Shown one piece after another: positions 409-63,288 of a stretch of 64,000 bases of DNA. The stretch lies in sequence record MN445185.1; one strand, written 5' to 3'. The stretch comes from Escherichia phage vB_EcoM_EC001. Every line of letters starts with the position of its first letter. The first letter of the stretch is position 1. Made by a program: the position numbers and the translations under genes. The notes beneath the pieces were generated by a model that worked only from the letters and a program-made list of their open reading frames with translations, had not been told where the DNA came from and made no database searches.

Positions 409-726
409 ATGTCTTTATTTCAAACCATTAAAAGTGCATTAGAGCGTAATGATGCAGACAGTGCCTTTACTGCGTTACAGAAAGCCAGTAACGGGAAGCT
501 AGATAGCGTCTTTGCTAACAATCAAAGAATGCGCTTTTACAAAGTCGGGGAAGTAGACCAGTTCTACAACGAACTGTTTACAGGGGTAGTGCAAAGCGCG
601 GTATACGCCATGCCGACTGAACAACTAAGTCAGTTTGAAAAAGGGATGCGTTACCAGCGGTTAAGTAACGACTACTCATTACTGAATCTGGCTATCGATG
701 ACTGCGTCGTACTGGTTGTATACTAA
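409..726 (+). CDS. hypothetical protein (105 aa)
   Basis: ORF with GAGGAG 9 nt upstream of ATG; first gene after a divergent intergenic region. Confidence 0.6.
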   Translation: MSLFQTIKSALERNDADSAFTALQKASNGKLDSVFANNQRMRFYKVGEVDQFYNELFTGVVQSAVYAMPTEQLSQFEKGMRYQRLSNDYSLLNLAIDDCVVLVVY

Positions 727-846
727 GTTTTTACAGATAGATGTCATCTTAGTGAGCAATGTGTATAAACCCACAGTCGCTTAAACACCAACTGTTCTTT
801 AGTAACAGTTTTTGGTCACTTTAGTGTACTTTAAAGGAAATACCAA

Positions 847-2085
847 ATGTATAACGAATACGAATTAGTTTACCAGACACCGAAAGAAGCATTCTTTAAT
901 GCAGTAATTACTAACTCAATTGTACTGTTGGGAATGCAGTTCAATATTCGGAGTATGGCTTACAGCGACGTAACGTGGCAGGATTGTGCGTGCCTGCCAC
1001 AAAAGCTCTCAACCGTTGTCGAAAAGCGGCTGCTTGACAAAGGGGAAGTAAAGTGCCGTTTAGGCCACCACGTCTCTGACTTAGCGCCGTGGGTTGAATT
1101 AACCATGACATTCGAAGGGGATTCGCGGGTAGCTTACCTATCGGGTAATCAAAACATCGGACGCGCCATTGCTGAGGGTAACACAATGTGGGTGCACTAC
1201 ATTCTTACTCTGCTGATCGATAAACCGGTGTTCGAGTTAACACCAGACATGCCTACACTAAGCGATAGCAACTGGTGGATTGGCGGAGAGCTGAATACAG
1301 GGTTTAATGAGAAATTACAAAACTTTAATTCAGAGCGACTCGATGTTGATGCGGAAGTGTTGGTGCAGCAGTTCCCCGAATTCACTGCGTACCAAATTAC
1401 TACCGTATGGAATAGAGCGGTAAGCAAGCGCAGATTCTACACGAAAAACGCACCGCGTGAAGCAGCCAAACCTGTGGAAATTGACGAAGACACCAAGGAA
1501 GCACTGCGTGATCTAGTCACCATAGCCAATGATAGCAATATGATGTTCTGGACATCTGATGAAAACGCTAACCATTATTTCGGTGAGATGTTAGACGCCG
1601 ATGTTTGGTCAGTAATGCCGATAACAGAGCCAGGAAACCTTAAAGATTACTATAAGGTCGAAAAGGATGAGGTGGTTAATGAGAAAGTCCTCACTCTTCT
1701 TGCTGTTTTCCGCGAAGTTATCCAGTCAGAAATACTGTTAAGCATCTATAAACGTAAGACCCCGGCCAGTGAAAATGACACGGCGTGGGTATTTGACTGT
1801 CGACCGACAAATACAATATCGCCTGCGTTCTGGATACAGGTGACAGGAAAGCTGCAGCGTGTGAACAGTTATGTTGTTTCTCGCCTGCCAGATTCTGAAA
1901 TGCGCTCCGTTGCCGAACCTGCTTATTTGATGTCGGCGAAGGCGGTACAGGATGCGTGGCGTACCAACGAACTGAAACAATGGCATTACGACGCTATCAT
2001 CAAATGGGGTGTTAACAATGGCTGGAAAGAAGTGACTAAGTACGGCCGTCAACTGTTGTTTGTCGCTGATTTGCGTTTACTGTAA
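847..2085 (+). CDS. hypothetical protein (412 aa)
   Basis: Long ORF, AAAGGA upstream of ATG, followed by an intrinsic terminator; no motif recognised. Confidence 0.7.
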   Translation: MYNEYELVYQTPKEAFFNAVITNSIVLLGMQFNIRSMAYSDVTWQDCACLPQKLSTVVEKRLLDKGEVKCRLGHHVSDLAPWVELTMTFEGDSRVAYLSGNQNIGRAIAEGNTMWVHYILTLLIDKPVFELTPDMPTLSDSNWWIGGELNTGFNEKLQNFNSERLDVDAEVLVQQFPEFTAYQITTVWNRAVSKRRFYTKNAPREAAKPVEIDEDTKEALRDLVTIANDSNMMFWTSDENANHYFGEMLDADVWSVMPITEPGNLKDYYKVEKDEVVNEKVLTLLAVFREVIQSEILLSIYKRKTPASENDTAWVFDCRPTNTISPAFWIQVTGKLQRVNSYVVSRLPDSEMRSVAEPAYLMSAKAVQDAWRTNELKQWHYDAIIKWGVNNGWKEVTKYGRQLLFVADLRLL

Positions 2086-2736: not shown

Positions 2737-3300
2737 ATGTCCCGTTTACTAGAAATTCGAAACGATATCTGGCAAGAGCAGATCCACAACGATCCAGAGT
2801 GGGAAGGAGTTGAAAGTGATTTACCGGATAACCCCGACCAGCTGTTGGTGTTCCTTTATAGCGATAAAGCCAAACAGATCAAGGGGATATTTGAACGCAA
2901 AACGACAAGCTTGTCGACCTTACTGAGCTGCATTTGCTGTGGCATCAGTGAGCTTGATCCCAATCTATTCACCAACTATCTTGCGCGTAAAGTCCGTACA
3001 CCACTACTAGAAGTTACACTCCCGCCAGATATTCGTATCAGTAAAACTGTACCGACTGTTTTGCGTTTACAGGATGTGTCTGGTAGTAGCGACGATGGGG
3101 AAACAACGATTACTCTTTCCTCGTCAGAGAGTGAACTCGCAACCAAATCGTTTCTTAGCGAAGTCGAGGCCGGATTAAAGCAGGACGTAATCGTCTATAA
3201 TCTCGGCAGTGTGCCCATTGAGCCCATTTTACACTTCTTTGAAAGCCAAACCTGCCATCTTGTAGAAAGCTTAACATACCACTTTAAAGGAGCTTTATGA
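2737..3300 (+). CDS. hypothetical protein (187 aa)
   Basis: ORF with AAGGTGAG SD; 9-nt spacer from upstream gene. Confidence 0.65.
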   Translation: MSRLLEIRNDIWQEQIHNDPEWEGVESDLPDNPDQLLVFLYSDKAKQIKGIFERKTTSLSTLLSCICCGISELDPNLFTNYLARKVRTPLLEVTLPPDIRISKTVPTVLRLQDVSGSSDDGETTITLSSSESELATKSFLSEVEAGLKQDVIVYNLGSVPIEPILHFFESQTCHLVESLTYHFKGAL

Positions 3301-3584
3301 TGAAACTCGAAGGCTACGTTGTTACTGATAAACCTTTTGCTGAAGCCAACCTGTCGCGTTCACAGGTTGTTTATAAAGACATCGATGTGCCTGCCGAAAT
3401 CGTTAAAGCGAATCCCAGCTGGCTAATCAACCACGTTTCTTTGGAAATCACCAATCCGTTTATCAACGATCCAACCGACCCATTTGTCGACATGGGTAAT
3501 TTCCGCGATATTCTTTCCCCGCATCAATACCAGACAGTGGCACAGAAGAAAGGGAAGCTGCTCATCGAAACGTTGAGTGTGTAG
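3297..3584 (+). CDS. hypothetical protein (95 aa)
   Basis: ATGA start/stop overlap with upstream gene; AAAGGAG SD; followed by a strong terminator. Confidence 0.55.
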   Translation: MMKLEGYVVTDKPFAEANLSRSQVVYKDIDVPAEIVKANPSWLINHVSLEITNPFINDPTDPFVDMGNFRDILSPHQYQTVAQKKGKLLIETLSV

Positions 3585-3589
3585 TTTAT

Positions 3590-3630: not shown

Positions 3631-3663
3631 ACACTTAACTCAAATTAATTTGAGGTGTGGTAT

Positions 3664-4251: not shown

Positions 4252-4282
4252 AATATCTCAGATATATATTACTTAGGTGAGA
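4252..4282 (+). promoter_or_regulatory. conserved promoter-like element, TATATTAC class
   Basis: …CTCAGATATATATTACTTAGGTGAG… right after stop of 3664..4251; near-identical copy at 62806; core matches phiKZ early-promoter element as I recall it. Confidence 0.45.
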
Positions 4283-4302
4283 GTTAAGAGATTAACTCAA
4301 CT

Positions 4303-4331
4303 GGCTACCCTCGGGTAGCCTATTCTTTTTT
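4303..4331 (+). terminator. hairpin + T-run between promoter-like motif and gene 4357 (terminator or attenuator)
   Basis: GGCTACC-ctcg-GGTAGCC then TATTCTTTTTT. Confidence 0.6.
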
Positions 4332-4356
4332 AAACCAATCGACTGTAGAGCAAAAC

Positions 4357-4758
4357 ATGACTATCAAGAAGTTCTTACAAACAGTAGTAGTTCTGGCCGC
4401 ATGTGGTATCGCAGCAACTTATGCTTTCGATAAGCCAGACGTGACTGAATACGTATCAGCGGATTCCGATTACGGTATTGCACCGAATGAAAAACCGGAA
4501 CTGATGCGTGAGGTCGAACAGTTACAAATCTACAAACTGACGGATGGTAAGAACTGCACAGGGCTGGTTATCGCTGATAAGAAACTGAAAATGTATCAGC
4601 GGTTAATCGACATATCGTGCGATCAACCAAAAGTCACCTCGGTCAGTGTATCGCCGTTGGAATTGCCAGATCTGGTTGCTGTGAGTTTTTATCACAACGA
4701 TGTGCTCGTTGGTCGCATCACCCTCAATCGTGGAGATATCAAAAATGAAATGCAATAA
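4357..4758 (+). CDS. putative lipoprotein (133 aa)
   Basis: N-terminal signal peptide with lipobox-like VLAAC-G. Confidence 0.6.
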   Translation: MTIKKFLQTVVVLAACGIAATYAFDKPDVTEYVSADSDYGIAPNEKPELMREVEQLQIYKLTDGKNCTGLVIADKKLKMYQRLIDISCDQPKVTSVSVSPLELPDLVAVSFYHNDVLVGRITLNRGDIKNEMQ

Positions 4759-6095: not shown

Positions 6096-6168
6096 GTGAG
6101 ATGACGACCCATCTCACTTTGGCCCTGCGGTGATTTCCCCAACACTTAGCCGCAGGGTCCTTTTTAAT
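6096..6168 (+). terminator. tandem hairpins, second followed by T-run
   Basis: GTGAGAT…ATCTCAC, then CCCTGCGG-(19-nt loop)-CCGCAGGG followed by TCCTTTTT, which runs into the TTAATCGAC motif. Confidence 0.55.
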
Positions 6169-12836: not shown

Positions 12837-13085
12837 ATGCAAAAAACAATCATCGGAATAACAGTTAGTTCTTTCTGTGGCTTCCCTACCCCACAAACAG
12901 AACCCCAATATTTAGGCGCAGGTAAACCCGATCCGGAAGTCCGTAAGTTGCGCGAAGAAGCAAAAGCCAGAGTTCTTACTGAGCTGGAATCGTTGCTTCA
13001 GTCTCCGGTTATTTCACAATGGGGTATGGCAATAGATGTCACTAGAACTGATCGACGAGGCCGTTATCTCCCACGACCTGTTTAA
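12837..13085 (+). CDS. hypothetical protein (82 aa)
   Basis: ATG immediately after upstream stop; AAAGGA SD; 3' end overlaps the macro-domain gene by 50 nt in another frame. Confidence 0.45.
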   Translation: MQKTIIGITVSSFCGFPTPQTEPQYLGAGKPDPEVRKLREEAKARVLTELESLLQSPVISQWGMAIDVTRTDRRGRYLPRPV

Positions 13086-13536
13086 CGCGCCTGAGCGCTT
13101 CAAGGTCGTTACAGTTAACTGTGTTGGTGCAATGGGAAGGGGCATTGCTTTGGCGTGCCGAGAACGCTTCCCATCGCTTTATAATGACTATCGCCAGAAA
13201 TGTCGTAAAGAGCAAATCGTTATCGGTGAGGTCTATTGTTATCCTGAGGAAGGGGTAATACTCCTTCCTACTAAAACCCATTTTCGCTATAAATCGCAGA
13301 TTTACTATGTCACGTCCGGCATTGATGCGCTGGCGCGACTAGGGGAAGACTTAGAAGGAGGGATTGCGATACCGCCCCTAGGGATGGCTAACGGTTGGTT
13401 ACGTTACCATGAGCGATTGGAAATCTTTATACACTTACAGAAACGACTACAGCACACGGAGCAGACTTATCGATTCTATTTACCGGACACATTGCTAAGG
13501 GAAGCAGAGAAAATCATCCCAAAAAGTTTCAAATAG
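13036..13536 (+). CDS. macro-domain protein, TARG1/DarG-like (166 aa)
   Basis: Motifs in order: HDLF…VNCVGAMGRGIALACRERFP, QIYYVTSG, GIAIPPLGMANGW, resembling the TARG1/OARD1/DarG macro subfamily as I recall it. Confidence 0.6.
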   Translation: MSLELIDEAVISHDLFNAPERFKVVTVNCVGAMGRGIALACRERFPSLYNDYRQKCRKEQIVIGEVYCYPEEGVILLPTKTHFRYKSQIYYVTSGIDALARLGEDLEGGIAIPPLGMANGWLRYHERLEIFIHLQKRLQHTEQTYRFYLPDTLLREAEKIIPKSFK

Positions 13537-13551
13537 ATATTATCATCAGGG
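13520..13551 (+). promoter_or_regulatory. conserved promoter-like element (ATATTATC variant)
   Basis: CAAAAAGTTTCAAATAGATATTATCATCAGGG; shares A-tract + AGATAgATATTAyC pattern. Confidence 0.4.
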
Positions 13552-13635
13552 CACATTACAAAGGAGCACAATGCCGTCCGCGCCGTCTTCCCGGATTGGG
13601 AACGGAAAAGTATAAATCCGTTTGGAGATACATCC

Positions 13636-14358
13636 ATGTTTCGCACCATTTTATTTCTTCTGGTAGCAGTGACCACATTCAACAGCAACGCTTCTTACCA
13701 GTCCACCAGTAACAAACATCAAAAAGAATTTGTCCTTATCCAGGACCAGTTCAATGAGATTAAACCTCTCATCGTCTCTGCATCTCGAAAACAAGGCGTA
13801 CATGCCGGGATGCTTGCGACCACCATTTACCGCGAATCCCGTTTTAATAAAAACGTGGGTAAGAATAAATCGAGCAGTGCTAGTAGTGTTGTCCAAATGA
13901 CGACAGGTACTAAACGCTCCATGATACGTCTGTATGGGAAACAACTTAACATCCCAAAGAACGCAGACCTTAATAAACCGAAATATGCTGTACAGCTTGC
14001 TGCTGTTTACATGAAACACATCGAGGATCATCTGACAAAACAACTCAAACGCAAGCCGAGCACAGCCGAAATTGCATTAGGCTACCGCTTCGGTGAGAGC
14101 GCTGCTGTTGCGATGATTAAAAAGAAATCATCGGTCGGGAAACGCTGGATGGACAGCTACCGAAAAGACGCAGCATTCTACGGTGCGAAAATGACGCCAC
14201 CGAAAGCTGAAACACGTCAGCTTGCTTTTGCGAAGGAAGACCGCGACCAACGCGTCGCTGAGCTTCAGAAAATCTGGGATACGCTGTACACCAAAATATC
14301 ACCTGCGGCCGGTACACTACTGGCAAATAACACTATCATGAAAGGAGCATTGCTTTGA
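13636..14358 (+). CDS. secreted protein, possible lysozyme-like/lytic transglycosylase (240 aa)
   Basis: Signal peptide; loose SLT-like segment YRESRFNKNVG…SVVQMTTGT; preceded by a 14-codon upstream ORF. Confidence 0.55.
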   Translation: MFRTILFLLVAVTTFNSNASYQSTSNKHQKEFVLIQDQFNEIKPLIVSASRKQGVHAGMLATTIYRESRFNKNVGKNKSSSASSVVQMTTGTKRSMIRLYGKQLNIPKNADLNKPKYAVQLAAVYMKHIEDHLTKQLKRKPSTAEIALGYRFGESAAVAMIKKKSSVGKRWMDSYRKDAAFYGAKMTPPKAETRQLAFAKEDRDQRVAELQKIWDTLYTKISPAAGTLLANNTIMKGALL

Positions 14359-14948: not shown

Positions 14949-14953
14949 TTAAC

Positions 14954-19642: not shown

Positions 19643-20362
19643 ATGACCTATCCTAAAATTCTGCCTGTTTTAACGCCCACCGTTGTTGTTGGGACGGACT
19701 TAGAGACCCTGGCTTTACGTCCAGATGCCTACATCTTAACGTTGGCAAACGTGGCATTCGATGTTCCGACAATGAAAATGATCGGTTCATGTTACCACAA
19801 AATCGACCCCAATGATGCAAAAGCAAAAGAAATCTTCTACATCGATCCACAAACGGTCGGTTATTGGGAAGGTAAAGGCGACCCCGAATACGCACCGAGC
19901 GAGAAAGCACGTATTGAAGCGTTTTCTGGGACCACACCACTGCCAGAAGCACTGTGGGCGGCCAAAAAATGGTTGGATGATCTGGGCAACGTGAAAATGG
20001 TTATCACCATGCGCGGTCCCGATTTCGATGCTCCAATTCTGATGAACGCATTTGCACAGTGCGATATCCCGCCGGGCAAGTACCGCAAGTTTTCTATTTT
20101 GGACTCTGACCGGACTGCAGAACGTATTGCATATGCGTTTGGCTTGGAACCTAACTGGCACGCAGAAGCCCACCACTGGACCCGTGGCAAAGAAGCGTAC
20201 GAGCATAACGCTAACTTTGATGCTGCGAAGGAAGCGTATTCTACGGCACGCATCTATCATTTGGCCCTGGTCGCGCGTACGTACGGCTTCGAACGCATGT
20301 TAGAAGCCCACCGCGAAATGTGCACAGGTGAATACATTCCACCGCAGTTGCGAGGAGAATAA
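19643..20362 (+). CDS. DEDDh-family 3'-5' exonuclease (239 aa)
   Basis: Exo I-like VVGTDLET (D-x-E), Exo II-like GPDFDAPILMNAF, Exo III-like HNANFDAAKEAY (H-x4-D). Confidence 0.65.
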   Translation: MTYPKILPVLTPTVVVGTDLETLALRPDAYILTLANVAFDVPTMKMIGSCYHKIDPNDAKAKEIFYIDPQTVGYWEGKGDPEYAPSEKARIEAFSGTTPLPEALWAAKKWLDDLGNVKMVITMRGPDFDAPILMNAFAQCDIPPGKYRKFSILDSDRTAERIAYAFGLEPNWHAEAHHWTRGKEAYEHNANFDAAKEAYSTARIYHLALVARTYGFERMLEAHREMCTGEYIPPQLRGE

Positions 20363-22671: not shown

Positions 22672-23406
22672 ATGCTTAAAGTCGAAGTGCCAGTGCTTTT
22701 AAACCTCACGCCCCAGTTCTTTGAAGCGTTGTTCGAAAAGCATTGGCCCGCGTTCGCGAAGAACGAACTAAAGGATAACCCACAGTGGTATCCTCTGCGC
22801 GATGAATTCAAGTATACAGCCATCAACGTCTGTATAGAAGTCTTCACTGCGTGGTTACAAGAGATGTACGACTGCATCAACACCGAACGGCTGTTCACGC
22901 TAGAACATGTAGAGATTAATGTTGTTGACGTCTACGAAGGTTACTCCTACGAAGAAGGCATTACTGCCACGGGGTTAAGCCAGCAAGACGTTGAAGAACA
23001 AATCTTTGCGTGGATCGAGTGGTTCACGGAAAAGTTGATGCTGGCTGATTTTGTCACGCAGGTGGAAGATGTATTCATCCCAATGTACGAGCGGTTAGCT
23101 GAGATACGTCGTAACCATCGACTGCTCGGTTACTGGTATGACACTTATACCACCTCCTCAACACTGTGGTCTTCCGCTACTGCCGCTTTTGGCATAACTG
23201 AAGGCGATTACGATGTCGTTCATTCTGGCCCTTGGCAGTACGGTTTCGGCACACTGTGGCACGAACTGACCGATGTCATGTGTCTGGACTTTTATCTCTG
23301 TGAAGGTAAGTTTTACACGGATAACTGCGTGAGCCAAATTCCGAATGGTGCGACGGTGGTGATGTGTCGCATCCGTAAAGAAGTCTCTAAGAAACTAAAC
23401 TACTGA
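22672..23406 (+). CDS. hypothetical protein (244 aa)
   Basis: TTAAGGAGA SD; preceded by an ATATTATC promoter-like motif. Confidence 0.65.
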   Translation: MLKVEVPVLLNLTPQFFEALFEKHWPAFAKNELKDNPQWYPLRDEFKYTAINVCIEVFTAWLQEMYDCINTERLFTLEHVEINVVDVYEGYSYEEGITATGLSQQDVEEQIFAWIEWFTEKLMLADFVTQVEDVFIPMYERLAEIRRNHRLLGYWYDTYTTSSTLWSSATAAFGITEGDYDVVHSGPWQYGFGTLWHELTDVMCLDFYLCEGKFYTDNCVSQIPNGATVVMCRIRKEVSKKLNY

Positions 23407-25366: not shown

Positions 25367-26290
25367 ATGGACAGCTTTCTTTTTGATTTGGCAGAATCGG
25401 TAAATGTAGATGTAATCGGTATGCGCGAATCCCCGAGTAATTTCTTAAACGGTCTTACTAAAATCGACGAACGTGTGAAATCCAGAAGTGGAGATCCCGC
25501 CATCATCGAGCAATACGCAATAGCCCATTGTGGCGAGATAGGCCAGCACTTTATACCGATTGAGGCGTTCCTAAAGAACTGCTTCGCCGAAGAATGCACC
25601 GCAGACTTCCTGTCTCTTGCCTACGGCTGGCGATACGGGGGTATCCAAATGGAATTTGATCTTAATATTTTTGAACAAGTTCTACTTGGCGACGTTCTCA
25701 CTGAGATACCACGCAGCTGGATAGACAAGATTCCCGGTTGGGCCGTCTCCTTTTCAGTGTGCTATCGCGCTAAAGATATCGGTATCCAAGAAAAGACTTA
25801 CGTTTTCGGTCGGCGAATGTTTAAAGGGAAAGATTGTTTAACAATGATGATTTTTGGAAAACGTATCGAGGGGGAAACCTTTGAAATCGTGGACGTGGGT
25901 GACGGCTTTGTATCCTTGCGTGTGGCGGAAACTGGTACGCCGGCCAATGAGAAAACGTTACGCATTGTCGGCGCTACCATGTTTACATTCTCACTGATCC
26001 CGCACAACCCTACACCCGTCAAACTGAGACAATTAACTGGAAAGAAACGTATCGCCAATTACCACATTGAACCAAAATCTAAACCGACTGTCCTCTCCAC
26101 CGTAAAAGCACAAAGCGAGTATCTTGAAGAATTTGATACTGATACGGAGAAAAGAACACAAGGTAGCAGATGTGCGCATATGCGTCGTGCACACTGGTGT
26201 ACTTACTGGCTCGGTCCACGTGACGGGAATCGGACAAAGATTTTGAAATGGATACCGCCGACATTTGTCAACGGTTCTAAATGCAAATAA
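25367..26290 (+). CDS. hypothetical protein (307 aa), Cys/His-rich C-terminus
   Basis: AAAGGAG SD preceded by TTAATCGACCATTA motif; C-terminal RCAHMRRAHWC…SKCK could bind metal (speculative). Confidence 0.65.
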   Translation: MDSFLFDLAESVNVDVIGMRESPSNFLNGLTKIDERVKSRSGDPAIIEQYAIAHCGEIGQHFIPIEAFLKNCFAEECTADFLSLAYGWRYGGIQMEFDLNIFEQVLLGDVLTEIPRSWIDKIPGWAVSFSVCYRAKDIGIQEKTYVFGRRMFKGKDCLTMMIFGKRIEGETFEIVDVGDGFVSLRVAETGTPANEKTLRIVGATMFTFSLIPHNPTPVKLRQLTGKKRIANYHIEPKSKPTVLSTVKAQSEYLEEFDTDTEKRTQGSRCAHMRRAHWCTYWLGPRDGNRTKILKWIPPTFVNGSKCK

Positions 26291-26301: not shown

Positions 26302-26345
26302 CCCACTCCCCTTATGGGAGTGGGTAATGCTTATTTTTTTTTTAT
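26302..26345. terminator. bidirectional intrinsic terminator between convergent genes
   Basis: CCCACTCCC-cttat-GGGAGTGGG; long T-run downstream, A-run upstream; flanks nearly identical to the terminator at 16480. Confidence 0.8.
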
Positions 26346-27097
26346 TTTTTGTTTGCTTTCAGGGTCTTGAGGCGATCACCGGTTACGTTCAGGCATTCTG
26401 TCAGTTCATTAATCTGTTTCATAAACAGTCCGAACAGCTCAACCCAGTCAGCACCCATGTCAGCCATTTTCACTAACTCTGCCGCCACATTAGGATGGAC
26501 TTGTGAATTAGAGATAATGTCTACAGAGACGTTGATGCTTTCAACTGTACGGTCAATACTTTTCTGAAGTTTCTTAGTCACTTCCAGGTTCAGCGCTTTG
26601 GCACGATTAAATGCAACATCGATCTCGCCCGCGCTGTGGTAGGTCTTTTCAATCGGACGCTGGTCAATGACGTTGTTGGTATACGACTTCGCCAGTTTCT
26701 CAACCAGATCTTTTGGATTGATATTTTTCAGCGGGTAGTTCAGGTCTTTGAACTTAAACCCAATCGGCAGAGTTAACATGCCCAGGTCATGGGTCATCGC
26801 ACCGAAACGTTTATCGATGGGTGTTAAAACCCCTTCCTGAATCTTCTGGAGCACAGCCCATACAGATTCCAACCGTTCTATGTGGTCCATCACATACGTG
26901 TTGAAGCCCGGAGGTACGGGTACAAGCATTCCGGTAAAGTTTAAAAACTTCTCTTGCTGCATCCACTTGGACACATCAGACATGTCGTCATAGGTGGTCA
27001 GCGCGAGTTCCTGTTGAGAGCCGCTAAAGGCTTTAGGCAGAATCGTGGATGCTTTGGCAACAAAGCCCGACAACGCTGCAAGTGGATTAACATTCAT
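26342..27097 (-). CDS. hypothetical protein (251 aa)
   Basis: Minus-strand ORF with GAGGT SD; ends at a bidirectional terminator shared with the upstream plus gene. Confidence 0.65.
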   Translation of the reverse strand: MNVNPLAALSGFVAKASTILPKAFSGSQQELALTTYDDMSDVSKWMQQEKFLNFTGMLVPVPPGFNTYVMDHIERLESVWAVLQKIQEGVLTPIDKRFGAMTHDLGMLTLPIGFKFKDLNYPLKNINPKDLVEKLAKSYTNNVIDQRPIEKTYHSAGEIDVAFNRAKALNLEVTKKLQKSIDRTVESINVSVDIISNSQVHPNVAAELVKMADMGADWVELFGLFMKQINELTECLNVTGDRLKTLKANKK

Positions 27098-29049: not shown

Positions 29050-29325
29050 ATGCGTTATCAGAAAGATATTGTAGAGCGTCTGTGTCTGGGTCTCGCTGGT
29101 ATTAGCCAGGAACTTAGCACCGCGTTCCATAACGAGTTCTCAGCACCGCGACATGCACTGTCTGAATTTAGTCATCAGGTAAATGCCCATTACGGCAACC
29201 TGATTAATGATAAACCGAAGGTTGATGCGGTCGGTGTGCCTGAACACAATGAAGATATCCCGTACTGGATTGAAGACCTGGAACGTGTGGTTCTTCCAGT
29301 GCTCCGTGAGAGGATGAAAAAATGA
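29050..29325 (+). CDS. hypothetical protein (91 aa)
   Basis: GAGGA SD; follows a terminator. Confidence 0.5.
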   Translation: MRYQKDIVERLCLGLAGISQELSTAFHNEFSAPRHALSEFSHQVNAHYGNLINDKPKVDAVGVPEHNEDIPYWIEDLERVVLPVLRERMKK

Positions 29326-29990
29326 GATTAGACCCGGCACGGCGAAAAAAAGCAGAAGCTTATGCTTTACAGTTACTGAACTTAGTTGACCCGACCGGGA
29401 TTAACGCGGAAGCTGCCAAGCGCGCTTTCTCACGAATGTCTGACGAAGAGTTCAATCGTCTGCGCGAAGGGTTGCCTGTTTACAACCCAACTGGCGGCAA
29501 GGTCAAAATTGACCATATGCGCAATATTAAAATTTGCGAAGCGATGGGACTGAGCTTGTGTCAGCGCCTGTGGCTCACGGAACCGAAAACCGGTATCCTA
29601 CAACGTACCCGTTACCCCCATTTAGTCTTCCGCCTGCCTGCACGTCGCCAGACGCAGATGCAAGAGAAGAAAATGGCGGTGGCGAAGAACGATAAAGTCC
29701 GCGATAAACTCTCAGGTCAGGTAGTAGGTCCTTCCAAAGCTTCGGGTGTTTCGTTTCCAGAAGCCTACATCATGTACTCGGATGGACACGACTCAACGCT
29801 CCAGGAGTTCCTGTGGGCGCGTGGTGGTAACGATACGTTACAACGTGCGTTCTATCAATCGCTACGGCAAACCGGTAAAGGTCGCATCAACCTGGAAGGG
29901 GCTGAGCGTACCAGTTCAAAAGCGCCGCGTACATGGTCTTCGTACTTTAAAGCAATGCACATCGGTAACAACTTAGGACGCCCGGAATGA
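29322..29990 (+). CDS. hypothetical protein (222 aa)
   Basis: ATGA overlap with upstream gene. Confidence 0.6.
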   Translation: MRLDPARRKKAEAYALQLLNLVDPTGINAEAAKRAFSRMSDEEFNRLREGLPVYNPTGGKVKIDHMRNIKICEAMGLSLCQRLWLTEPKTGILQRTRYPHLVFRLPARRQTQMQEKKMAVAKNDKVRDKLSGQVVGPSKASGVSFPEAYIMYSDGHDSTLQEFLWARGGNDTLQRAFYQSLRQTGKGRINLEGAERTSSKAPRTWSSYFKAMHIGNNLGRPE

Positions 29991-31209: not shown

Positions 31210-31740
31210 ATGCTTTTTAAATGGCTTTCAACACTCCTGCGTCGTAAGGCTGTAGAAGCTCGCAGACGCTCTTTGGAGGCTGAGTTTCATAAGAATACCC
31301 ATAACACCCTGCACAGAGTGATGGTGGGCTTAGAACTCATTACAGAGCCTCTGGAATATAATGGGAAAGAATACCTTCCTTTTTCATTACGTGGACAACT
31401 CGAATTACGTATTCGAGATTTTGACACGTTGGTGGAGCGATTGGAATTCTTCATTTCTGAGTATAACCGTGTATCCAGTAGCAACATTCCCAATCAACGT
31501 TGGTTAGAGTTGCCTGAGGCAATCGATAGAAAAGGAGAGAGTTCAGAACCACGATGGCTTGATCATTATTTCGGTGCATCCGATCCTGAAGTCGCGCGCG
31601 ATAAACTGCGCACAGTCTTCGCTATGTTAGAACTGTATCAGCGTGCATTTGATAAACAAACACCCGAACAGGATACGCTGTTTAATCAAACCGCACATAT
31701 CTTCCGCGAGTTAGAAGTGATAGTGGAACACTATCTCTAA
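31210..31740 (+). CDS. hypothetical protein (176 aa)
   Basis: AGGA SD; preceded by promoter-like motif AAAAAGAACTCAGACAGATATTATC. Confidence 0.6.
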   Translation: MLFKWLSTLLRRKAVEARRRSLEAEFHKNTHNTLHRVMVGLELITEPLEYNGKEYLPFSLRGQLELRIRDFDTLVERLEFFISEYNRVSSSNIPNQRWLELPEAIDRKGESSEPRWLDHYFGASDPEVARDKLRTVFAMLELYQRAFDKQTPEQDTLFNQTAHIFRELEVIVEHYL

Positions 31741-51898: not shown

Positions 51899-53512
51899 GT
51901 GAGAAAGCTAAACTGGGTTGACTTTTACTTGTTAAACGTCAACAAGTCCCTGGTGTCGCATTTAAAACCAGTTACAACAACAGACACCTTTCAGGGACTG
52001 ACGAAAAACTTTCACCCTGAAGGACTGTATTCAACCGAAATTTTTGGCCTCACAGGGAGCGAAGCACGAGACTCAACGTTCTCGTACATTGATATCAAAC
52101 TGGATATCATTTCGCCGACCGTTTGTTTGGCATTGTTCCAGCTGAAACAGCTGTACGAAGAAATCTGTTCCGGGAAGCGATTCGCTATCTGGAATGAGAA
52201 AGAAAAAGATTTCGAGCCGGCTCTGCCCAGTGATAAAGGTGCAGACACCGGCTTCAACTTCTTCCTACGCTACTACGAACAACTGACGCCAGGACGCAAC
52301 GAATCAATGCGTCGCGACGAGACAGTCGATTTCTTCAATAAGTTCCGTCCGGTCAGTCTCAGCCGCTATGTGCTGGTTCTACCTGCGGGATTACGTGATT
52401 TGGTCATTCGTCAGGATGGCCGCGACCAAGAAGAAGAGATTGGCGGACTCTACCGCCGTCTGATTTCTCTGGCACGTGCAGTCCCCGACCGCAGTACGCG
52501 AACGGAACTGACTGACCCGGTTCGCTGGAAGCTCCAACAAACCTTTAATGACATCTGGATGTACTTCTTCAACATCCAAGACGGTAAAGGTGGTTTTGCG
52601 CGTCGTAAAGTGACGTCACGTAAGTTAATGAACGGTACGCGTAACGTACTGTCTTCATTCTCAACCGGTTCCAAGGTCATGGGTCGCGAAGATGCGATTC
52701 GTCCAACGGATACCCGTATCGGTTTGTACCAAACCCTGAAGGCGTTACTGCCTGTGGCTCAATACCACATCCGTGAACGTTACCTCAGTAACATCCGGGC
52801 AGGGGATGGCAACTTATACGGCGTTAACACCAAAACACTCAAGCGTGAGTTCCTGGAAGTCTCCGGGCGGGTGTATGACCTTTTCACTACCGACGATGGC
52901 ATCGAAACACTCATCAACAGAATGGAAGCGCGCGAGCTTCGACATAAACCGCTGATGATTGATCCGGACCATTACGTGGCATTAATCTACCAAGACAAAC
53001 GCAGCTTCAAAATCTTTTACGATATTGAAGACCTGCCGGAAGGACGTGACCGTAAGCTTGTCCGCGGACTGAGCTTAGCGGAACTCCTCTATTTGTCAGG
53101 TTACGATATTTGGAATGACTACTTCTCGTTCATCACGCGTTATCCGGTTACGGGACGCGGTTCGACTTACTCCTCGACCATAAGATTGGAGACCACCACT
53201 TCTTCCCTCTATTTGCATGAACTGGAAGACGATTGGGTCACGTTAAAAGAGAAGGGTGCAATTAGCTTCCCTGATCGTACCGTGAAAACCTTTGTGGAAT
53301 CCATGGCACCACATCCATCCCGATTAGGTGGATTGGGTGGTGACTACGATGGTGACACCGGCTCAGCAAACTGCCCGATGTCAACCGAAGCGCTCGAGGA
53401 AAATCGGAAGTGGGTCAGTTCGAAAAACTACTGGTTTGCAACAGACGGCAGTTTCAAAATCAATCCGGTTAACAACGTGATTAAAAGAACGACTGCTGCG
53501 CTGTTGAAATGA
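51899..53512 (+). CDS. RNA polymerase beta-prime-like subunit, N-terminal-half type (537 aa, GTG start)
   Basis: AGGAG SD 7-8 nt before GTG. In canonical order: SYIDIKLDIISP (~GHIELAAPVAH), RRKVTSRKLMNGTRNVL (~LLGKRVDYSGRSVI), TRYPVTGRGS (~NRAPTLHRLG), GDYDGDTGSANCPMSTEAL (~NADFDGDQMAVHVPLSLEA) ~50 aa before the stop. Confidence 0.65.
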   Translation: MRKLNWVDFYLLNVNKSLVSHLKPVTTTDTFQGLTKNFHPEGLYSTEIFGLTGSEARDSTFSYIDIKLDIISPTVCLALFQLKQLYEEICSGKRFAIWNEKEKDFEPALPSDKGADTGFNFFLRYYEQLTPGRNESMRRDETVDFFNKFRPVSLSRYVLVLPAGLRDLVIRQDGRDQEEEIGGLYRRLISLARAVPDRSTRTELTDPVRWKLQQTFNDIWMYFFNIQDGKGGFARRKVTSRKLMNGTRNVLSSFSTGSKVMGREDAIRPTDTRIGLYQTLKALLPVAQYHIRERYLSNIRAGDGNLYGVNTKTLKREFLEVSGRVYDLFTTDDGIETLINRMEARELRHKPLMIDPDHYVALIYQDKRSFKIFYDIEDLPEGRDRKLVRGLSLAELLYLSGYDIWNDYFSFITRYPVTGRGSTYSSTIRLETTTSSLYLHELEDDWVTLKEKGAISFPDRTVKTFVESMAPHPSRLGGLGGDYDGDTGSANCPMSTEALEENRKWVSSKNYWFATDGSFKINPVNNVIKRTTAALLK

Positions 53513-53530
53513 TACCCATAAGGCACATGT

Positions 53531-56500
53531 ATGATTTTTCTGAAACAGTTTAACCAGCGCTTTACCGTGCGCAAGACCGATGAGTTCGGTCGTCCGCGTA
53601 TTATCCCGCTGGAGAAGCTCCAGCTCCCACGTGGTTCTATCTACCACACCATCGATTTAGACCAGGTGGTTTTAGCGCCGCCGTTAACCACACCGTGTTT
53701 TGGCCAGCTGGAAAAACCGGCGATGATTCGCCACCACTTCCAGCTGCCTGAAGACGGCATTATTGGCCACCCGCGTAAGAAACCGGTTGTTGGCCAAGAA
53801 CGTCAAATCTTCCAGTACCATCGTAACAACCGTCGTATTCGTCGCATGATTGAAGACGGCGTGGTACGTTCAGATCCGAAAGTGCTGCTCATCGAAAACT
53901 ACACCCCGATGCTGCCGCATTATTTCTACCCTGATACTCTGATGTCCTGGTACGAACGTCTGCACAACATTCAGCTGCTGATAACTAACCAGATGAAAAC
54001 TGACTCACGTGAGTACATGCGTCAGAACTACTACATCATCGAACTGGGTAACGTACTGCCTTCTTTCGATCGTTTTAAAATGACGTATAACGATCGTGTT
54101 AAAACCAAACTGGAGCGCTTTAAGGACTTTAATCTCCTGTGGTTACTGGAACTGTTCGGTTGGGCTTACGGCGATCAGCAAGCAACACTGTTTGACGGCA
54201 TGGACATGAACCAGCTGTCACGTGTGAACTTTATCTTCACGCACAACGGTGGTTTTACATCCATGAACATGGGTGTAATTGAAAGAATGCGTAAGTCTGC
54301 CGGCGGTCGTTTGACTGACGTGCAGATGGGCAGAATGTTCTACCGTACACTGACTACGGTGATGACCACACCGCCGTCTACCGACTACGAAGATGACGAG
54401 TTCGTTACACCGGAAGGGGACGAACGCGTACATCTGGGAGAGGACGACGATGTTGTTGAAGCCGTTGCCAGTAAACCGGAAGAAACCCTCGATATCGTCG
54501 ACGATGAAGCAACACAAAGCGACAACGTTGACGATATATTGAACGATCATGAGTTCGATGAGAAAGAAGATCTGGTCATCGAAGCGCCGAAAGAAGATGT
54601 CAAACCAACCACCATCGTCGTAGAACGCACCATCCCACACGATGCTGTGATTAAACAGGAAGTTGAGCGCCTGGCAGAAGCGGGCCGCGTCACCGCCAAA
54701 GCGTATCAGTTCCTGAACGAATCTTCTAAACGTTTCGTAAACTTACCCAACCCGTACAATCCTAAAGAGACGTACGGCGAAGGTCTGACCATCGATCCGA
54801 AGAAACTCGAAGTTAAAGCCGAGCCTAAGAAGATTGAACGCTTAGTTACGGATGAAGCCTGGGCGGAAAATACCACCGACCAAATCATTCGTCAGTACAA
54901 CCAGGAAATCTTCCCGAAAGATATTCTGGGGGCAGTAGCGTCATCTCAGCGTCTCGGTTTGGCGATTCACAATCACACTGTTGAGAAAGAGATTTCCGTT
55001 ACCGGGAATATCGAACACCACACGTTGCGTATTCAGCCGATTGGCGGAGAACCAACCACGGTACGTTTCTCAATTCCTGCATTAACCGAAGACGGTACTT
55101 GGGTTGCAAATGGTGTGGAATATACAATGCGTCGTCAGCGTGTTGATCTTCCTATCCGTAAAGTGTCCCACGATACTGTAGCGTTAACCACTGCCTACGG
55201 GAAGAACTTTGTCCGTCGCAGTGATAAAGTCGTCAATGATTACGGACGTTGGCTCACTAACGCGATTATTACTCGCGCGGTCGATCCAAAGAACACCGAA
55301 ATCACTGATGCAAAACTGGCGAATGTGTTCGATCCGCTGTCTAAACTGCCGCGTCAATATACCGAAGTGGCGCGTCGTGTAGCAGCGTTCAACGCAATTG
55401 GGTACCAATGGAGCTTTGACATTAAACAGAAAGCGGCATTCTTTAACGAAGGGCAACTGGCAGACGCGGACCGTGTCGAGCTGGTACCTGTGGCGAAGAA
55501 ACCGCGGAGTCATGTCATCGTCGGTATGGATAAAAACTCCCAGCTTTATCGAGTGGATAAGGATAAGACCGAACCACTGGGTACACTCGCCGAGGTCTTT
55601 GGCGTGGACACCTCTAAGGCTCCACGAGAAATGACCGAACTGTCACTGATGGGCAAATCAATCTCGCTGGGCTTTGTGTTTTCGTACTATCTCGGGTTAA
55701 CCGGGATGTTGAAACACTTTGGTATCAGTTACGAGGTTCTCTCTGTCGGACAACGTATCGATAAAGGTCAGTTCGACTCCATCATTCGTCTCCAGGATGC
55801 GAAAATTGCAATTGTCTGCGAGAACGATCAACAGAGGATGATTGTCAACGGCTTAGACCGTTACATCAAACACTTTACCACGTATACCGAGTCGGAAGTT
55901 GACCGGGAAGACATTTATCTGAACCTGTTACGCGATGCAGATGGGCTAACACCACGCTACATCAAAGAGCTGAAACTGATGCGAACCGCATTTGTTGATG
56001 ACATGCACGCGCGTATCCTCAGGAAAATGGGCGAGCCGGAAACCTTTATCGGCTTACTGGAGCGTTCTAACGAACTGCTGCAGACGGACCACACGTTACC
56101 GGAAATTAACGGTGACGAAATGATGTTCATCGGGAACCAACGTATTTCGTATCACATCTACACCGCGATGGTGCGGGCGATGCGTAACTACAACAACGCG
56201 CCTAACTCGAATCGTAAGTTTGAGTTGACGCAGGACATGGTGTGGGGTGCGATTAACTCCGACCCGTCTGTTCTGCTGGCTCCTGGCGCAAACCCGGTAC
56301 AGAACATCAAAGAAAAAGATGTTGTTACCATGGGCGGTACAGGCGGTCGTAACCGCAAAACCATGGTATACAGTACCCGTGAATTCCAACCGAGCGACCT
56401 GGGGATTATCTCCGGTAACACGGTCGATAACGGCGACGTAGGTATCACCGCCTTTGCAACAAACAATCCGCGTTACGACACCGTGGACGGCACGACCTTT

Positions 56501-57736
56501 AAAAAGGACCTCGATAAACTGAAGCCAGGTGAGGCACTGTCATTTATTGATGGCTTGGTGCCGGATACCCTGATGGACGATGCTAAGCGTCAGAACTTCG
56601 TTGGGATTCAATTCGGTTCTGCGACCAGTTGTGTTGGCGCAACCACCACACCGTATCGTACCGAGCAAGAAAAGTTCGTGGCACACCGTACTTCTGTGAA
56701 GCACGCACGCGTAATCGATAAACCAGGCAAGATTGTGGAGGTTCTTAACGACCACGTTAAAATCAAATACGACGACGGAGAGGAAGAAGCTTTCCCACTG
56801 GGCCGTTGGTTCGGTCCACACGAAGGGACTTACTACCCACACACCCTGGTAACGAAATGGAAGCGCGGAGATAAACTCCCTGCCGGTGCCGTTATCACGT
56901 ACAACGAACAACACTTTGAACCAGACATCTACGATCCAACGCAGGTCAGCTTTAAAAACGGGATACTGGCAACTGTCGCTTTGATTGAAGGGGAAGAAGT
57001 AATTGAGGACTCCAACGCCATTAGTGAGCGGTTCGCTGCTAAGGCTGAAGCCGATGTTACCAAACTCAAAGAAGTCACAATGACGTTTACCCAGAACCTG
57101 TTGGAGATGGTAAAAGAAGGGGACCACGTAGACGTGGATTCAATTCTATGCACCTTCACCGACAACCTGACCGGCGATATGAGCGGGTTCAGTAAAGAAG
57201 CAGCGGAAACGCTGCGTGAGTTAAGCTCCTTTGCACCACGCTCTGGTGTTCGTGGGTTTATCGACAAAATCGAAGTGGTTTACCACGGCGAGGTGGAAGA
57301 TATGACCCCGTCTTTGGCGGAGATGGTTCGTAAATACGACCGTATACGTCGGAAGACTGCGCTGGCTCTCAAACGTGACGAGCCGAAGGACGGTCGAGTC
57401 AACGGTGATTTTCGTGTTGAGGGGGTGCCGTTAGCGTACAATAGCCTGTGTGTCCGATTCTACATCACACACCGGGTAGAGATGGCAGCAGCGGATAAGA
57501 TGGTTATTGCTAACCAGCTGAAAACGACGGTTCAGGAAGTGATGTATGGAACCAACAAAACGGAAGACGGGCAGGAACTCGACATTATCTTTGGTCGTGA
57601 TTCCGTCGACGCACGTATCGTGGGTTCTATCATGCGCATCGGAACCACCAACGCTGTCGGGTATCGTGGTGGGGAGAATATCGGACGCATCTTAGATGGT
57701 GAAGACGTCCCAGCCTTGCCGGCTAAAATCAACTAA
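53531..57736 (+). CDS. large protein (1401 aa), possible RNA polymerase subunit partner; function unverified
   Basis: 4.2-kb ORF immediately downstream of the beta-prime-like gene; only weak resemblances (…PSDLGIISGNTVDNGDVGI…); acidic insert region. Confidence 0.8.
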   Translation: MIFLKQFNQRFTVRKTDEFGRPRIIPLEKLQLPRGSIYHTIDLDQVVLAPPLTTPCFGQLEKPAMIRHHFQLPEDGIIGHPRKKPVVGQERQIFQYHRNNRRIRRMIEDGVVRSDPKVLLIENYTPMLPHYFYPDTLMSWYERLHNIQLLITNQMKTDSREYMRQNYYIIELGNVLPSFDRFKMTYNDRVKTKLERFKDFNLLWLLELFGWAYGDQQATLFDGMDMNQLSRVNFIFTHNGGFTSMNMGVIERMRKSAGGRLTDVQMGRMFYRTLTTVMTTPPSTDYEDDEFVTPEGDERVHLGEDDDVVEAVASKPEETLDIVDDEATQSDNVDDILNDHEFDEKEDLVIEAPKEDVKPTTIVVERTIPHDAVIKQEVERLAEAGRVTAKAYQFLNESSKRFVNLPNPYNPKETYGEGLTIDPKKLEVKAEPKKIERLVTDEAWAENTTDQIIRQYNQEIFPKDILGAVASSQRLGLAIHNHTVEKEISVTGNIEHHTLRIQPIGGEPTTVRFSIPALTEDGTWVANGVEYTMRRQRVDLPIRKVSHDTVALTTAYGKNFVRRSDKVVNDYGRWLTNAIITRAVDPKNTEITDAKLANVFDPLSKLPRQYTEVARRVAAFNAIGYQWSFDIKQKAAFFNEGQLADADRVELVPVAKKPRSHVIVGMDKNSQLYRVDKDKTEPLGTLAEVFGVDTSKAPREMTELSLMGKSISLGFVFSYYLGLTGMLKHFGISYEVLSVGQRIDKGQFDSIIRLQDAKIAIVCENDQQRMIVNGLDRYIKHFTTYTESEVDREDIYLNLLRDADGLTPRYIKELKLMRTAFVDDMHARILRKMGEPETFIGLLERSNELLQTDHTLPEINGDEMMFIGNQRISYHIYTAMVRAMRNYNNAPNSNRKFELTQDMVWGAINSDPSVLLAPGANPVQNIKEKDVVTMGGTGGRNRKTMVYSTREFQPSDLGIISGNTVDNGDVGITAFATNNPRYDTVDGTTFKKDLDKLKPGEALSFIDGLVPDTLMDDAKRQNFVGIQFGSATSCVGATTTPYRTEQEKFVAHRTSVKHARVIDKPGKIVEVLNDHVKIKYDDGEEEAFPLGRWFGPHEGTYYPHTLVTKWKRGDKLPAGAVITYNEQHFEPDIYDPTQVSFKNGILATVALIEGEEVIEDSNAISERFAAKAEADVTKLKEVTMTFTQNLLEMVKEGDHVDVDSILCTFTDNLTGDMSGFSKEAAETLRELSSFAPRSGVRGFIDKIEVVYHGEVEDMTPSLAEMVRKYDRIRRKTALALKRDEPKDGRVNGDFRVEGVPLAYNSLCVRFYITHRVEMAAADKMVIANQLKTTVQEVMYGTNKTEDGQELDIIFGRDSVDARIVGSIMRIGTTNAVGYRGGENIGRILDGEDVPALPAKIN

Positions 57737-62805: not shown

Positions 62806-62839
62806 CAAAAAGAACTGAGATATATATTACTTAGGTGAG
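62806..62839 (+). promoter_or_regulatory. conserved promoter-like element, TATATTAC class
   Basis: CAAAAAGAACTGAGATATATATTACTTAGGTGAG, downstream of a terminator and ~50 nt upstream of gene 62890. Confidence 0.45.
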
Positions 62840-62856
62840 CGTTACACGTTAACGCT

Positions 62857-62870
62857 TTAATCGACCATTA
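62857..62870 (+). promoter_or_regulatory. conserved 5'-leader motif TTAATCGACCATTA
   Basis: Ends 19-20 nt before ATG 62890; ~18 nt downstream of TATATTAC element. Confidence 0.35.
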
Positions 62871-62889: not shown

Positions 62890-63288
62890 ATGACTAACCA
62901 ACTACGCCAAGACCCGTTTGTTGCCATGATGCTTTGTGCTAAAGCCGAGAGCAACGAAGCCGATTTAATTCGTCTGTTGACTGATGACGAATACCTTATC
63001 GCTGAGCGCGATAAACGTTTAAAAGAACTCTACAAGCCAGAAACCGGTGAATCGCTCGACAATCAAGACGCCTGGAAGTTTCTTATTCTCATTGCTGATG
63101 AAAAGTGGCGAGCAGAAAATCCCATCGTCTGTGATATTACAGACCTACCGTACAAATACGGCGGACTCATCACCAGCGACCTGCATCTTAAAGCGTACTT
63201 TGATGGCGAAGCAATACAAGAGCTGCAAGATGTTCTTATTACAGCAACGAACACTTTGAGACGTTTGCGCGCTGAGCAGCTGATCTGA
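62890..63288 (+). CDS. hypothetical protein (132 aa)
   Basis: Preceded by terminator, TATATTAC motif, TTAATCGACCATTA motif and AAGGAG SD. Confidence 0.55.
   Translation: MTNQLRQDPFVAMMLCAKAESNEADLIRLLTDDEYLIAERDKRLKELYKPETGESLDNQDAWKFLILIADEKWRAENPIVCDITDLPYKYGGLITSDLHLKAYFDGEAIQELQDVLITATNTLRRLRAEQLI

Follow-up and report, generated by a model that had tools for sequence, protein, structure and literature searches.

What is the short motif that recurs upstream of the genes of this large phage, and which RNA polymerase would read it? The question is raised by positions 4252-4282 of a stretch of 64,000 nucleotides from Escherichia phage vB_EcoM_EC001 (MN445185.1), the whole of which we refer to as the window. 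The window contains six strong copies of a motif of ~35 bp and one decayed copy, all on the + strand. On the evidence of its closest matches the window is DNA of an SPN3US-type jumbo phage (Seoulvirus), related to phiKZ. We consider it very likely that the elements are early promoters of this SPN3US-like phage, read by a multisubunit RNA polymerase which the virion carries and which enters the cell with the DNA. A sequence-only reading of the window had proposed a phiKZ-like family of early promoters; the type of phage, its virion polymerase genes and the match to phiKZ sites are all consistent with that proposal.

A family of promoter-like elements

When the copies are aligned on the heptamer ATATTAY, an upstream A-tract and a block reading (T/C)T(C/G)AGA(T/C)A(G/T) are found in common, and a G lies exactly six bases past the core in every aligned window copy (6/6). 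The consensus runs A-tract, TTTCAGATAG, ATATTAY, six bases and an invariant G. If numbered from this G as the predicted start, the A-tract covers about -29 to -24, TTTCAGATAG covers -23 to -14 and ATATTAY covers -13 to -7, and the predicted transcripts usually begin with GAG. The core is exact in five window copies and reads ATGTCAT in the sixth, at 741. Two classes can be recognized. The class a copies, 4266 and 62824, hold AGATATATATTACTTAGGTGAG and are identical over 22 nt (4260-4281 and 62818-62839), while the class b copies 13537, 22629 and 31167 carry AGATATTATC. The seven copies, named here by the position at which the core begins or is anchored, are as follows; the scores are those of the matrix described in the next section.

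717..756, + strand: variant-core copy (ATGTCAT, 741-747); predicted start G 754; before gene 847..2085; 36.5 bits
4242..4281, + strand: class a copy (AGATATATATTACTTAGGTGAG); core ATATTAC 4266-4272; predicted start G 4279; before gene 4357..4758; 44.7 bits
6062..6101, + strand: decayed copy (AAAAGTTTTCAGACAGATGTTAT-AACGTGAG), anchor 6086; 1-nt deletion between core and G; 6.4 bits (8.4 bits in another scan)
13513..13552, + strand: class b copy (CAAATAGATATTATC); core 13537-13543; predicted start G 13550; before transglycosylase-like gene 13636..14358 (phrog_4067); 23.3 bits
22605..22644, + strand: class b copy (GAGATAGATATTATCT); core 22629-22635; predicted start G 22642; before gene 22672..23406; 28.7 bits
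31143..31182, + strand: class b copy (CAGACAGATATTATCT); core 31167-31173; predicted start G 31180; in a divergent intergenic region, before gene 31210..31740; 33.5 bits
62800..62839, + strand: class a copy; core 62824-62830; predicted start G 62837; before gene 62890..63288; 39.3 bits

Five of these copies had been located by the sequence-only reading, and their positions and sequences are confirmed, as are the near-identity of the two class a copies and the upstream tract, CAAAAAG(A/T), common to three copies. The same reading had listed 727-756 as a degenerate copy. At 36.5 bits this is a full member of the family. The decayed copy at 6062-6101 was missing from that list; it is probably weak or inactive in the window phage.

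The copies had also been described as intergenic and 40-100 nt before plus-strand genes. The distances hold, with 43-99 nt from core to start codon and 30-93 nt from predicted start to ATG, always before a + strand gene. The six copies are intergenic, with the qualification that the final codons of ORF (open reading frame) 13036..13536 reach into the upstream half of copy 13537. Upstream of the 62824 copy a terminator can be read directly from the sequence at ~62753-62790, as a G+C hairpin with a T-run. No Pfam match was found for the genes downstream of the window copies, and the PHROG families of these genes are without assigned function, except for the transglycosylase-like 13636..14358.

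Statistical support and host-type alternatives

To avoid circularity, a 40-nt position weight matrix (PWM) was trained on 17 SPN3US copies from outside the region homologous to the window. This independent matrix recovers exactly six window sites, 4266, 62824, 741, 31167, 22629 and 13537, at 23.3-44.7 bits. The next match (17.6 bits) arises from the partly palindromic core of 31167 and is the echo of this copy on the reverse strand; 6086 follows at 6.4 bits. Across 200 dinucleotide shuffles of the window the mean number of matches of at least 15 bits was 0.005, and the maximum was 15.5. The family is statistically real.

The bare heptamer ATATTAY occurs on the + strand at about the level of chance (11 observed vs ~9.6 estimated from base composition), and TATATTAC is also found inside genes, in two occurrences. 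The evidence is carried by the whole 35-bp pattern and not by the core alone. In an unbiased search for k-mers enriched between genes, most of the signal comes from terminator T-runs, CCTTCGGG loops and ribosome-binding sites; of the motif, only AGATAGAT and AGATATTA emerge, with 9 intergenic copies each.

The core resembles TATAAT, and one may ask if these are simply promoters for the host sigma-70 polymerase, with TATATT or TATTAT serving as the -10 box and the A-tract helping, perhaps as an UP element. We regard this as extremely unlikely. A -35 (TTGACA) and -10 (TATAAT) pair 16-18 bp apart is not found in the elements, and the positions where a -35 element would lie are poorly conserved. 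Sigma-70-type matches in the window occur at the shuffle level (28 vs 28.4 expected in 1-20000, and 22 vs 24.7 in 20001-40000), and no site in this consensus scan of 1-40000 coincides with an early-motif element. Furthermore, phages that infect Salmonella, Erwinia and Pseudomonas all keep the 35-bp pattern, including the fixed spacing of the G.

As a rule, class b cores include AGATA-N5-TATCT. In the 31167 copy (31158-31182) the symmetry extends to an imperfect palindrome of 11 bp, CTCAGACAGATA-TTA-TCTATCCGAG. On the minus strand this sequence reads as a hairpin with a T-run behind it, and our terminator scan accordingly calls a minus-strand terminator.

Such symmetry is what one would expect of operators for a phage DNA-binding regulator that recognizes the partial palindrome AGATA-N5-TATCT, in which case the elements would not be promoters themselves. 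The presence of AGATAGATATTATCT in the class b copies, the extended palindrome at 31167 and the reverse-strand echoes of 11-17 bits can all be read in this way. The class a copies (TATATATTACYTAGG), however, belong to the same family and are not palindromic, and all copies have a single orientation relative to the downstream gene. The conservation is also asymmetric: the A-tract is confined to one side, and the other has the invariant G and the GAG start. An operator role could coexist with promoter function, but as a replacement for it we find it very unlikely.

Match to phiKZ early promoters

The sequence-only reading had named TATATTAC as the early-promoter core of phiKZ, and this is borne out by the published phiKZ early-promoter consensus, TATATTAC (PMC7058600 Table 2; consensus also in PMC7598289). 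In phiKZ, 32 early promoters have been mapped by differential RNA sequencing (dRNA-seq) (PMC8244752). Seven TATATTAC sites lie in the first 50 kb of phiKZ, and every one has an A-rich tract, a TTTnA block and a G six bases past the core. At three of these sites the block reads TTnAGAT; one of the three precedes PHIKZ054, the shell gene, for which an early start has been mapped (PMC8244752). The layout of our family corresponds to that of the phiKZ sites base for base, the G included.

Conserved regions at -10, -20 and -30 have been described for the early promoters of phiKZ and 201phi2-1 (PMC11512511; also PMC8244752). The extra blocks near -20 and -30 are present in our family as TTTCAGATAG at -23 to -14 and as the A-tract with an invariant A at -29. 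The early consensus of AR9 is AAATATATATTAT-(6N)-G+1, and phiKZ and phiR1-37 transcripts start 6 nt past the element (PMC5312081). It has been stated that a motif of this kind can be recognized by bioinformatics in all jumbo phages encoding such polymerases (PMC7598289, citing Lavysh 2016).

The phage and its virion RNA polymerase

A megablast search with window 3000-9000 returned 33 close matches of 95-99% or higher identity, among them SPN3US, JN03 and the SPFM series; overall, 32 Salmonella phages are among the close relatives of the window. The counterpart of the window in SPN3US is ~161.1-225 kb of NC_027402. SPN3US is a nucleus-forming jumbo phage of 240 kb, related to phiKZ (PMC13282480). 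Its head packages an RNA polymerase of five subunits, gp42, gp218, gp240, gp241 and gp244, of which gp218, gp240, gp241 and gp244 are virion proteins by mass spectrometry (PMC5694885). The RefSeq tags of SPN3US are reversed, so that ACQ60_gpN equals the original gp(266-N); the five polymerase subunits and the protease gp245 served as a check on this rule.

The window contains four of the five subunit genes, which match RNA polymerase beta or gp244 families:

29322..29990, + strand: virion RNA polymerase subunit, homologue of SPN3US gp218 (RefSeq annotation; phrog_3233, 1e-93; PMC5694885)
51899..53512 and 53531..57736, + strand: virion RNA polymerase subunits, homologues of gp240 and gp241 (phrog_2986, phrog_3148; PMC5694885)
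59559..60287, + strand: fifth virion RNA polymerase subunit, homologue of gp244 (phrog_2926; PMC5694885, PMC7598289)

By analogy with related phages this virion enzyme is the presumed reader of the early-motif promoters. Among the window and SPN3US copies, none lies upstream of the virion-polymerase genes, including 29322..29990 and 51899..57736.

The pattern across the SPN3US genome

The whole SPN3US genome was assembled for a motif scan, and the placement of genes was read from RefSeq gene tables. The scan finds 23 copies, all on the + strand and all pointing at a + strand gene. Across them the A at -29 and the G are invariant, the G lying six bases past the core in 23/23, and over 21 training sites the ATATTAY core is invariant at five positions. 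About 5% of the genome is non-coding (estimated by greedy ORF cover), yet 22 of the 23 copies are intergenic. Equal frequency in coding sequence, which the sequence-only reading had named as a result that would speak against it, therefore does not apply: inside genes we count 0/6 window copies and 1/23 SPN3US copies.

Operons headed by several SPN3US copies include genes for thymidylate kinase, dihydrofolate reductase or a helix-turn-helix (HTH) protein. Outside the window, the predicted start of copy 28975 lies 26 nt from the ATG of a beta-like gene pair (29014-33356), and copies 15620 and 15713 head an operon with a further beta-like gene (17704-19299). The products of these beta-like genes are absent from the list of virion subunits (PMC5694885), and we therefore take them to be genes of the second, non-virion polymerase.

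This bears on the possibility that the elements are middle or late promoters of that second polymerase. Two SPN3US copies (72492 and 72690) are found just after the major head protein gene and another, 109899, follows a tail gene, which would suit a later role. Nevertheless, phiKZ has other motifs for its middle and late promoters, namely TATG at the start and, around -22, a weak A/T-rich or TACT sequence (PMC7598289, PMC8244752), whereas our motif fits the early consensus (phiKZ sites; PMC7058600). Copies also precede genes of the non-virion polymerase, which are needed before that enzyme exists, and no copy stands directly before a gene annotated as virion structural (0/23 of the immediate downstream genes in SPN3US). 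We consider transcription by the second polymerase very unlikely.

Conservation in related phages

The relative SPAsTU is syntenic with the window, at ~72% nucleotide identity where aligned. The motif is kept at every orthologous SPAsTU position, whereas the coding sequence before it and a large part of the leader have diverged. For example, at the 4266 copy a block of 28 nt is conserved in SPAsTU between divergent flanks. The orthologue of the 741 copy scores 27.4 bits with the core ATATCAT and that of 22629 scores 22.6 bits; the orthologue of the decayed 6086 copy has normal spacing and reaches 27.3 bits.

The pattern extends to more distant phages. When 1146 bp around the 4266 copy were compared by blastn with fifteen Erwinia jumbo phages, only query positions 596-644, the promoter itself, aligned. 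A 40-kb piece of the Erwinia phage phiEaH2 holds five copies, one of them before an HTH gene, as in SPN3US. The exact 22-mer AGATATATATTACYTAGGTGAG is present in 15 IMG/VR contigs, fourteen of 107-246 kb and one fragment of 7.4 kb, at one to five copies per contig and all on one strand within a contig.

Recurrence of this sort could also come from repeats that promote recombination and are spread along with gene cassettes, any regulatory role being incidental. The class a copies do travel with a shared leader, made up of a stem-loop, a TAATCGACYATTA box and a ribosome-binding site, and the box, together with a terminator of its own, is also found with an accessory gene that only two relatives have (both described below). 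However, orthologous copies stay in place across genera while their surroundings diverge, which indicates selection on each site. Spread with cassettes is compatible with promoter function; as the explanation of the family it is hardly credible. Such support as the alternatives have comes only from the partial palindrome of the class b copies and the cassette-like spread of class a. None of the alternatives considered here accounts for the asymmetric conservation together with the fixed G.

Proposed mechanism

We return to early promoters read by the virion polymerase. The enzyme, the base at which it starts and the early timing are inferred by analogy with phiKZ and AR9. On this view the virion polymerase, once injected, would recognize the ~35-bp element and start transcription at the invariant G six bases past the core, that is at 754, 4279, 13550, 22642, 31180 and 62837. 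Early operons could then be transcribed with neither the host sigma-70 polymerase nor new protein. The six window copies would fire in the first minutes of infection, driving + strand operons of mostly small genes of unassigned function. Elsewhere in the genome the second, non-virion polymerase would be expressed from the same promoters and would then take over.

Several points weigh against this account. One SPN3US copy, 25232, lies inside a gene, 261 nt before the gene end. The literature searched yielded no transcript data for the window phage, SPN3US or a close relative. Some non-virion polymerase genes of 201phi2-1 have no early promoter nearby (PMC11512511), and because of these counterexamples the placement of copies before such genes is suggestive only. 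In AR9 a single mismatch in the core can kill a predicted early promoter (PMC5312081); on this precedent, copies 741 (ATGTCAT) and 13537 (low score) may be weak or dead. Finally, at three window copies a terminator stands between the element and the gene, an arrangement that is unexpected for a simple promoter-to-gene unit.

The predictions are of practical use. GenBank records of SPN3US and its relatives are without regulatory features, and a site-level map supplies predicted starts. Such a map also marks the genes of unassigned function that are probably made first, and these are likely genes of host takeover. SPN3US serves as the genetic model for these phages, with amber mutants available whose particles are devoid of the virion polymerase, e.g. 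218(am101) and 244(am84) (PMC5694885), so the promoters are directly testable there.

Leader stem-loops and terminators

The leaders behind these promoters hold further structure. The predicted class a transcripts would begin with a 6-9 bp stem-loop that opens between +1 and +3, and these +1 stem-loops fit the predicted start position. As a criterion we used a contiguous stem of at least 6 bp; this replaced a laxer one that gave 10/23 sites vs 22% of random positions. With the stricter criterion a stem is found at the predicted start of 9/23 SPN3US sites vs 9% of GAG-starting positions (p ~1e-4). All six exact class a sites in SPN3US have the stem, as does the hybrid copy 4433, and it is found in 22 of 34 distinct class a leaders from IMG/VR contigs. 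Among 20 leaders whose stem opens exactly at +1, positions +4, +5, +7 and +8 show several Watson-Crick pair types.

The structured leaders of the window are:

754..816, + strand: leader of the predicted 754 transcript; stem-loop 754-782 opening at +1, second hairpin with U-run 787-816; fold z -1.8, weak
4281..4332, + strand: leader of the predicted 4279 transcript; stem-loop 4281-4298, intrinsic-terminator hairpin 4303-4320 with U-run; minimum free energy -21.2 kcal/mol, z -4.5
6096..6166, + strand: leader behind the decayed copy; 8-bp stem-loop 6096-6117, long terminator hairpin 6121-6159 with U-run; z -3.6
62837..62857, + strand: 8-bp stem-loop opening exactly at the predicted +1; the same feature, with covarying stems, in paralogous and metagenomic copies

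Both hairpins of the 4279 leader are conserved in SPAsTU. The SPAsTU orthologue of the 754 leader has a different 9-bp stem at +1, and the 6096-6117 stem shows a compensatory change, from GAGATG/CATCTC to GAGACG/CGTCTC. An attempt to fold 26 leaders together gave no consensus structure (RNAalifold on a plain MAFFT alignment). This is because the loops of the leaders differ in length, and we used per-sequence stem statistics and counts of pair types instead. At gathering thresholds there is no Rfam match in the window.

Three window leaders have an intrinsic terminator between the predicted start and the gene (4303-4332, 787-816 and 6121-6166), and all three terminators are conserved in SPAsTU. 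Judging from the positions of the hairpins, termination in the leaders would give RNAs of 55-70 nt: ~55 nt for 4279-4332, ~65 nt for 754-818 and ~70 nt for 6098-6166. Equally, the terminators might serve only to end the upstream operon. In phiKZ, short RNAs derived from 5' untranslated regions by premature termination have been described, with 17 candidates, e.g. one of ~71 nt upstream of PHIKZ221 (PMC10914365). The same order of promoter, structured leader, intrinsic terminator and gene is seen at 4279-4332, 754-816 and 6096-6166, here from sequence alone.

It is known in E. coli that a stem-loop at the 5' terminus protects mRNAs from decay that depends on the 5' end. We tentatively suggest, as a possibility that we would not yet favour, that the class a promoter is part of a conserved and perhaps portable early-expression cassette made up of promoter, +1 stem-loop, TAATCGACYATTA box and ribosome-binding site, with the stem protecting or marking transcripts and the leader terminators acting as a source of short RNAs or as an attenuator. 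If this is true, the +1 stem-loop would protect or mark early transcripts, for example against 5'-end-dependent decay by host RNase E and RppH. The leader terminators (4279, 754 and 6098) would give abundant early RNAs of 55-70 nt or form an attenuator, and the virion polymerase would have to read through them or be helped through. In the accessible literature we found no description of the cassette, the +1 stem-loop or the leader terminators for SPN3US or the Erwinia-phage group, and these leader features may be the only new parts of the present work.

A second leader box and an accessory gene

A second conserved box, TAATCGACYATTA, with the pattern TAATCGAC(T/C)ATTA, is found in several leaders, immediately ahead of the ribosome-binding site and 20-30 nt from the ATG. 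It occurs with or without an early promoter upstream:

Window: TAATCGAC(T/C)ATTA box at 4338, 6167, 25339, 62860 and 63739; also at 5219, at a gene end
SPN3US: TAATCGAC(T/C)ATTA box at 23832, 65456, 94281, 114031, 165764, 167593, 223319 and 224198

In SPN3US the box is strongly biased towards one strand, with 17 occurrences on the + strand vs 4 on the minus strand, where ~3.7 per strand are estimated by chance. Leaders of phiEaH2 have similar boxes, TAATCGACCATTT and ATTCGACTATTA.

One gene with such a box is accessory. Among ~30 relatives, only JN03 and Lh1B have gene 25367..26290 (307 amino acids, no Pfam match); SPN3US lacks it. With its own terminators on either side (25303-25326 and 26300-26326), a TAATCGACCATTA box and a strong ribosome-binding site, the gene resembles a self-contained inserted module.

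Other observations in the window

Two further sites listed by the sequence-only reading do not belong to the family. The site at 19612-19632 (+) has a best PWM score of -2.7 and lacks every flanking block; it is a TATAAT-like element that is conserved in SPAsTU. The proposed minus-strand copy at 27100-27122 scores -4.2 at best and is an A/T-rich stretch abutting the ribosome-binding site of the minus gene 26342..27097. The first of these sites is part of an element, TACGTTAATAGTCAATAGTGTGATATATAATC, at 19596-19632, which follows a bidirectional terminator (19559-19584) and precedes gene 19643..20362. Its SPAsTU version, TGATATAAT, is an extended -10-like sequence, and the element may be another class of promoter or a host-type promoter.

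Terminator-like hairpins occur in the window above expectation (44 vs 18.8 in 1-20000, and 31 vs 19.4 in 20001-40000). Many have CTTCGG-type loops, and there are bidirectional ones at 16480-16505, 19559-19584 and 26300-26326. In the leader between the predicted start at 13550 and gene 13636..14358 there is an ORF of 14 codons (13561-13615; ATG 13571, MPSAPSSRIGNGKV) with a strong ribosome-binding site, AAAGGAG; the ATG at 13571 is not conserved in SPAsTU. The window is also short by ~240 bp at 3300-3650 relative to SPN3US and most relatives, a query of 6001 bp spanning ~6243 bp of the records that it matches, and ORF 3297..3584 encodes 95 amino acids vs 175 for the SPN3US gene 164484..165011.

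Comparison with known early promoters

Promoters of this kind are already well described, and the window copies are confirmatory rather than surprising. The closest parallel is with phiKZ, where the A-tract lies at about -29 to -24, (T)TTnAGAT at about -22 to -15 and the core at -14 to -7, followed by six bases and the G. In both phages the sites are intergenic, on the leading strand and placed before small genes of unassigned function and non-virion polymerase genes, and both encode a split multisubunit virion polymerase. The phiKZ promoters are known as 28-32 sites by RNA-seq, 5' rapid amplification of cDNA ends and dRNA-seq, whereas those of the window phage are known from the sequence only. 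There are also differences. The window phage has ~48% G+C vs ~37% in the phiKZ stretch examined, and for this reason the motif stands out more here. Its -23 to -14 block (TTTCAGATAG) is longer and stricter, two core variants (ATATTAC and ATATTAT) occur in one genome, and the +1 stem, which is common in the family of the window phage, was found at 1/8 of the phiKZ sites checked.

The early promoters of the Bacillus phage AR9, of which 41 are known by dRNA-seq, have the same core and the same gap of six bases to a starting G; the virion polymerase is implicated in their use by resistance to chloramphenicol (PMC5312081). AR9 differs in having DNA that contains uracil, in not forming a nucleus and in lacking the TTTCAGATAG block.

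Two systems are more distant. The virion-borne polymerase of coliphage N4 is a single-subunit enzyme that reads early promoters in which a DNA hairpin upstream of the start is the recognition element. A virion-borne polymerase and early promoters associated with hairpins are shared features, but in our family the hairpin is downstream of the predicted start and is found at a subset of copies. The 'promoter-early stem-loop' cassettes of T4 are repeated units of promoter and hairpin between early genes; they resemble our arrangement, except that the T4 cassettes use the host polymerase.

Three predicted promoters resemble the two classes more directly (all from PMC7058600 Table 2): TBYAWWWWWTTTCARRYAKATATTATYWAAGTGWA for the Klebsiella phage N1M2, BSHAWWWWWTTTYARRYAKATATTATYWWADTG for the Pseudomonas phage OBP and TTAWTAVAA_HYWTTTRARR_BTATATTACDWHDGTG for 201phi2-1. 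Class b copies, e.g. CAAAAAGTTTCAAATAGATATTATCATCAGGG, fit the ...WWWWWTTTCARRYAKATATTATYWAAGTG... of OBP and N1M2 almost letter for letter, and class a copies (CAAAAAGAACTGAGATATATATTACTTAGGTGAG) fit the ...TTTRARR_BTATATTACDWHDGTG of 201phi2-1. Among the genes that follow N1M2 copies are one for RNA polymerase beta and one for a transglycosylase, as the transglycosylase-like gene 13636..14358 follows a copy in the window. These phages belong to other genera and infect other hosts, whereas here both variants stand side by side in one genome. The presence in a single genome of the phiKZ/201phi2-1 and OBP/N1M2 core variants narrows the positions that a virion polymerase would need.

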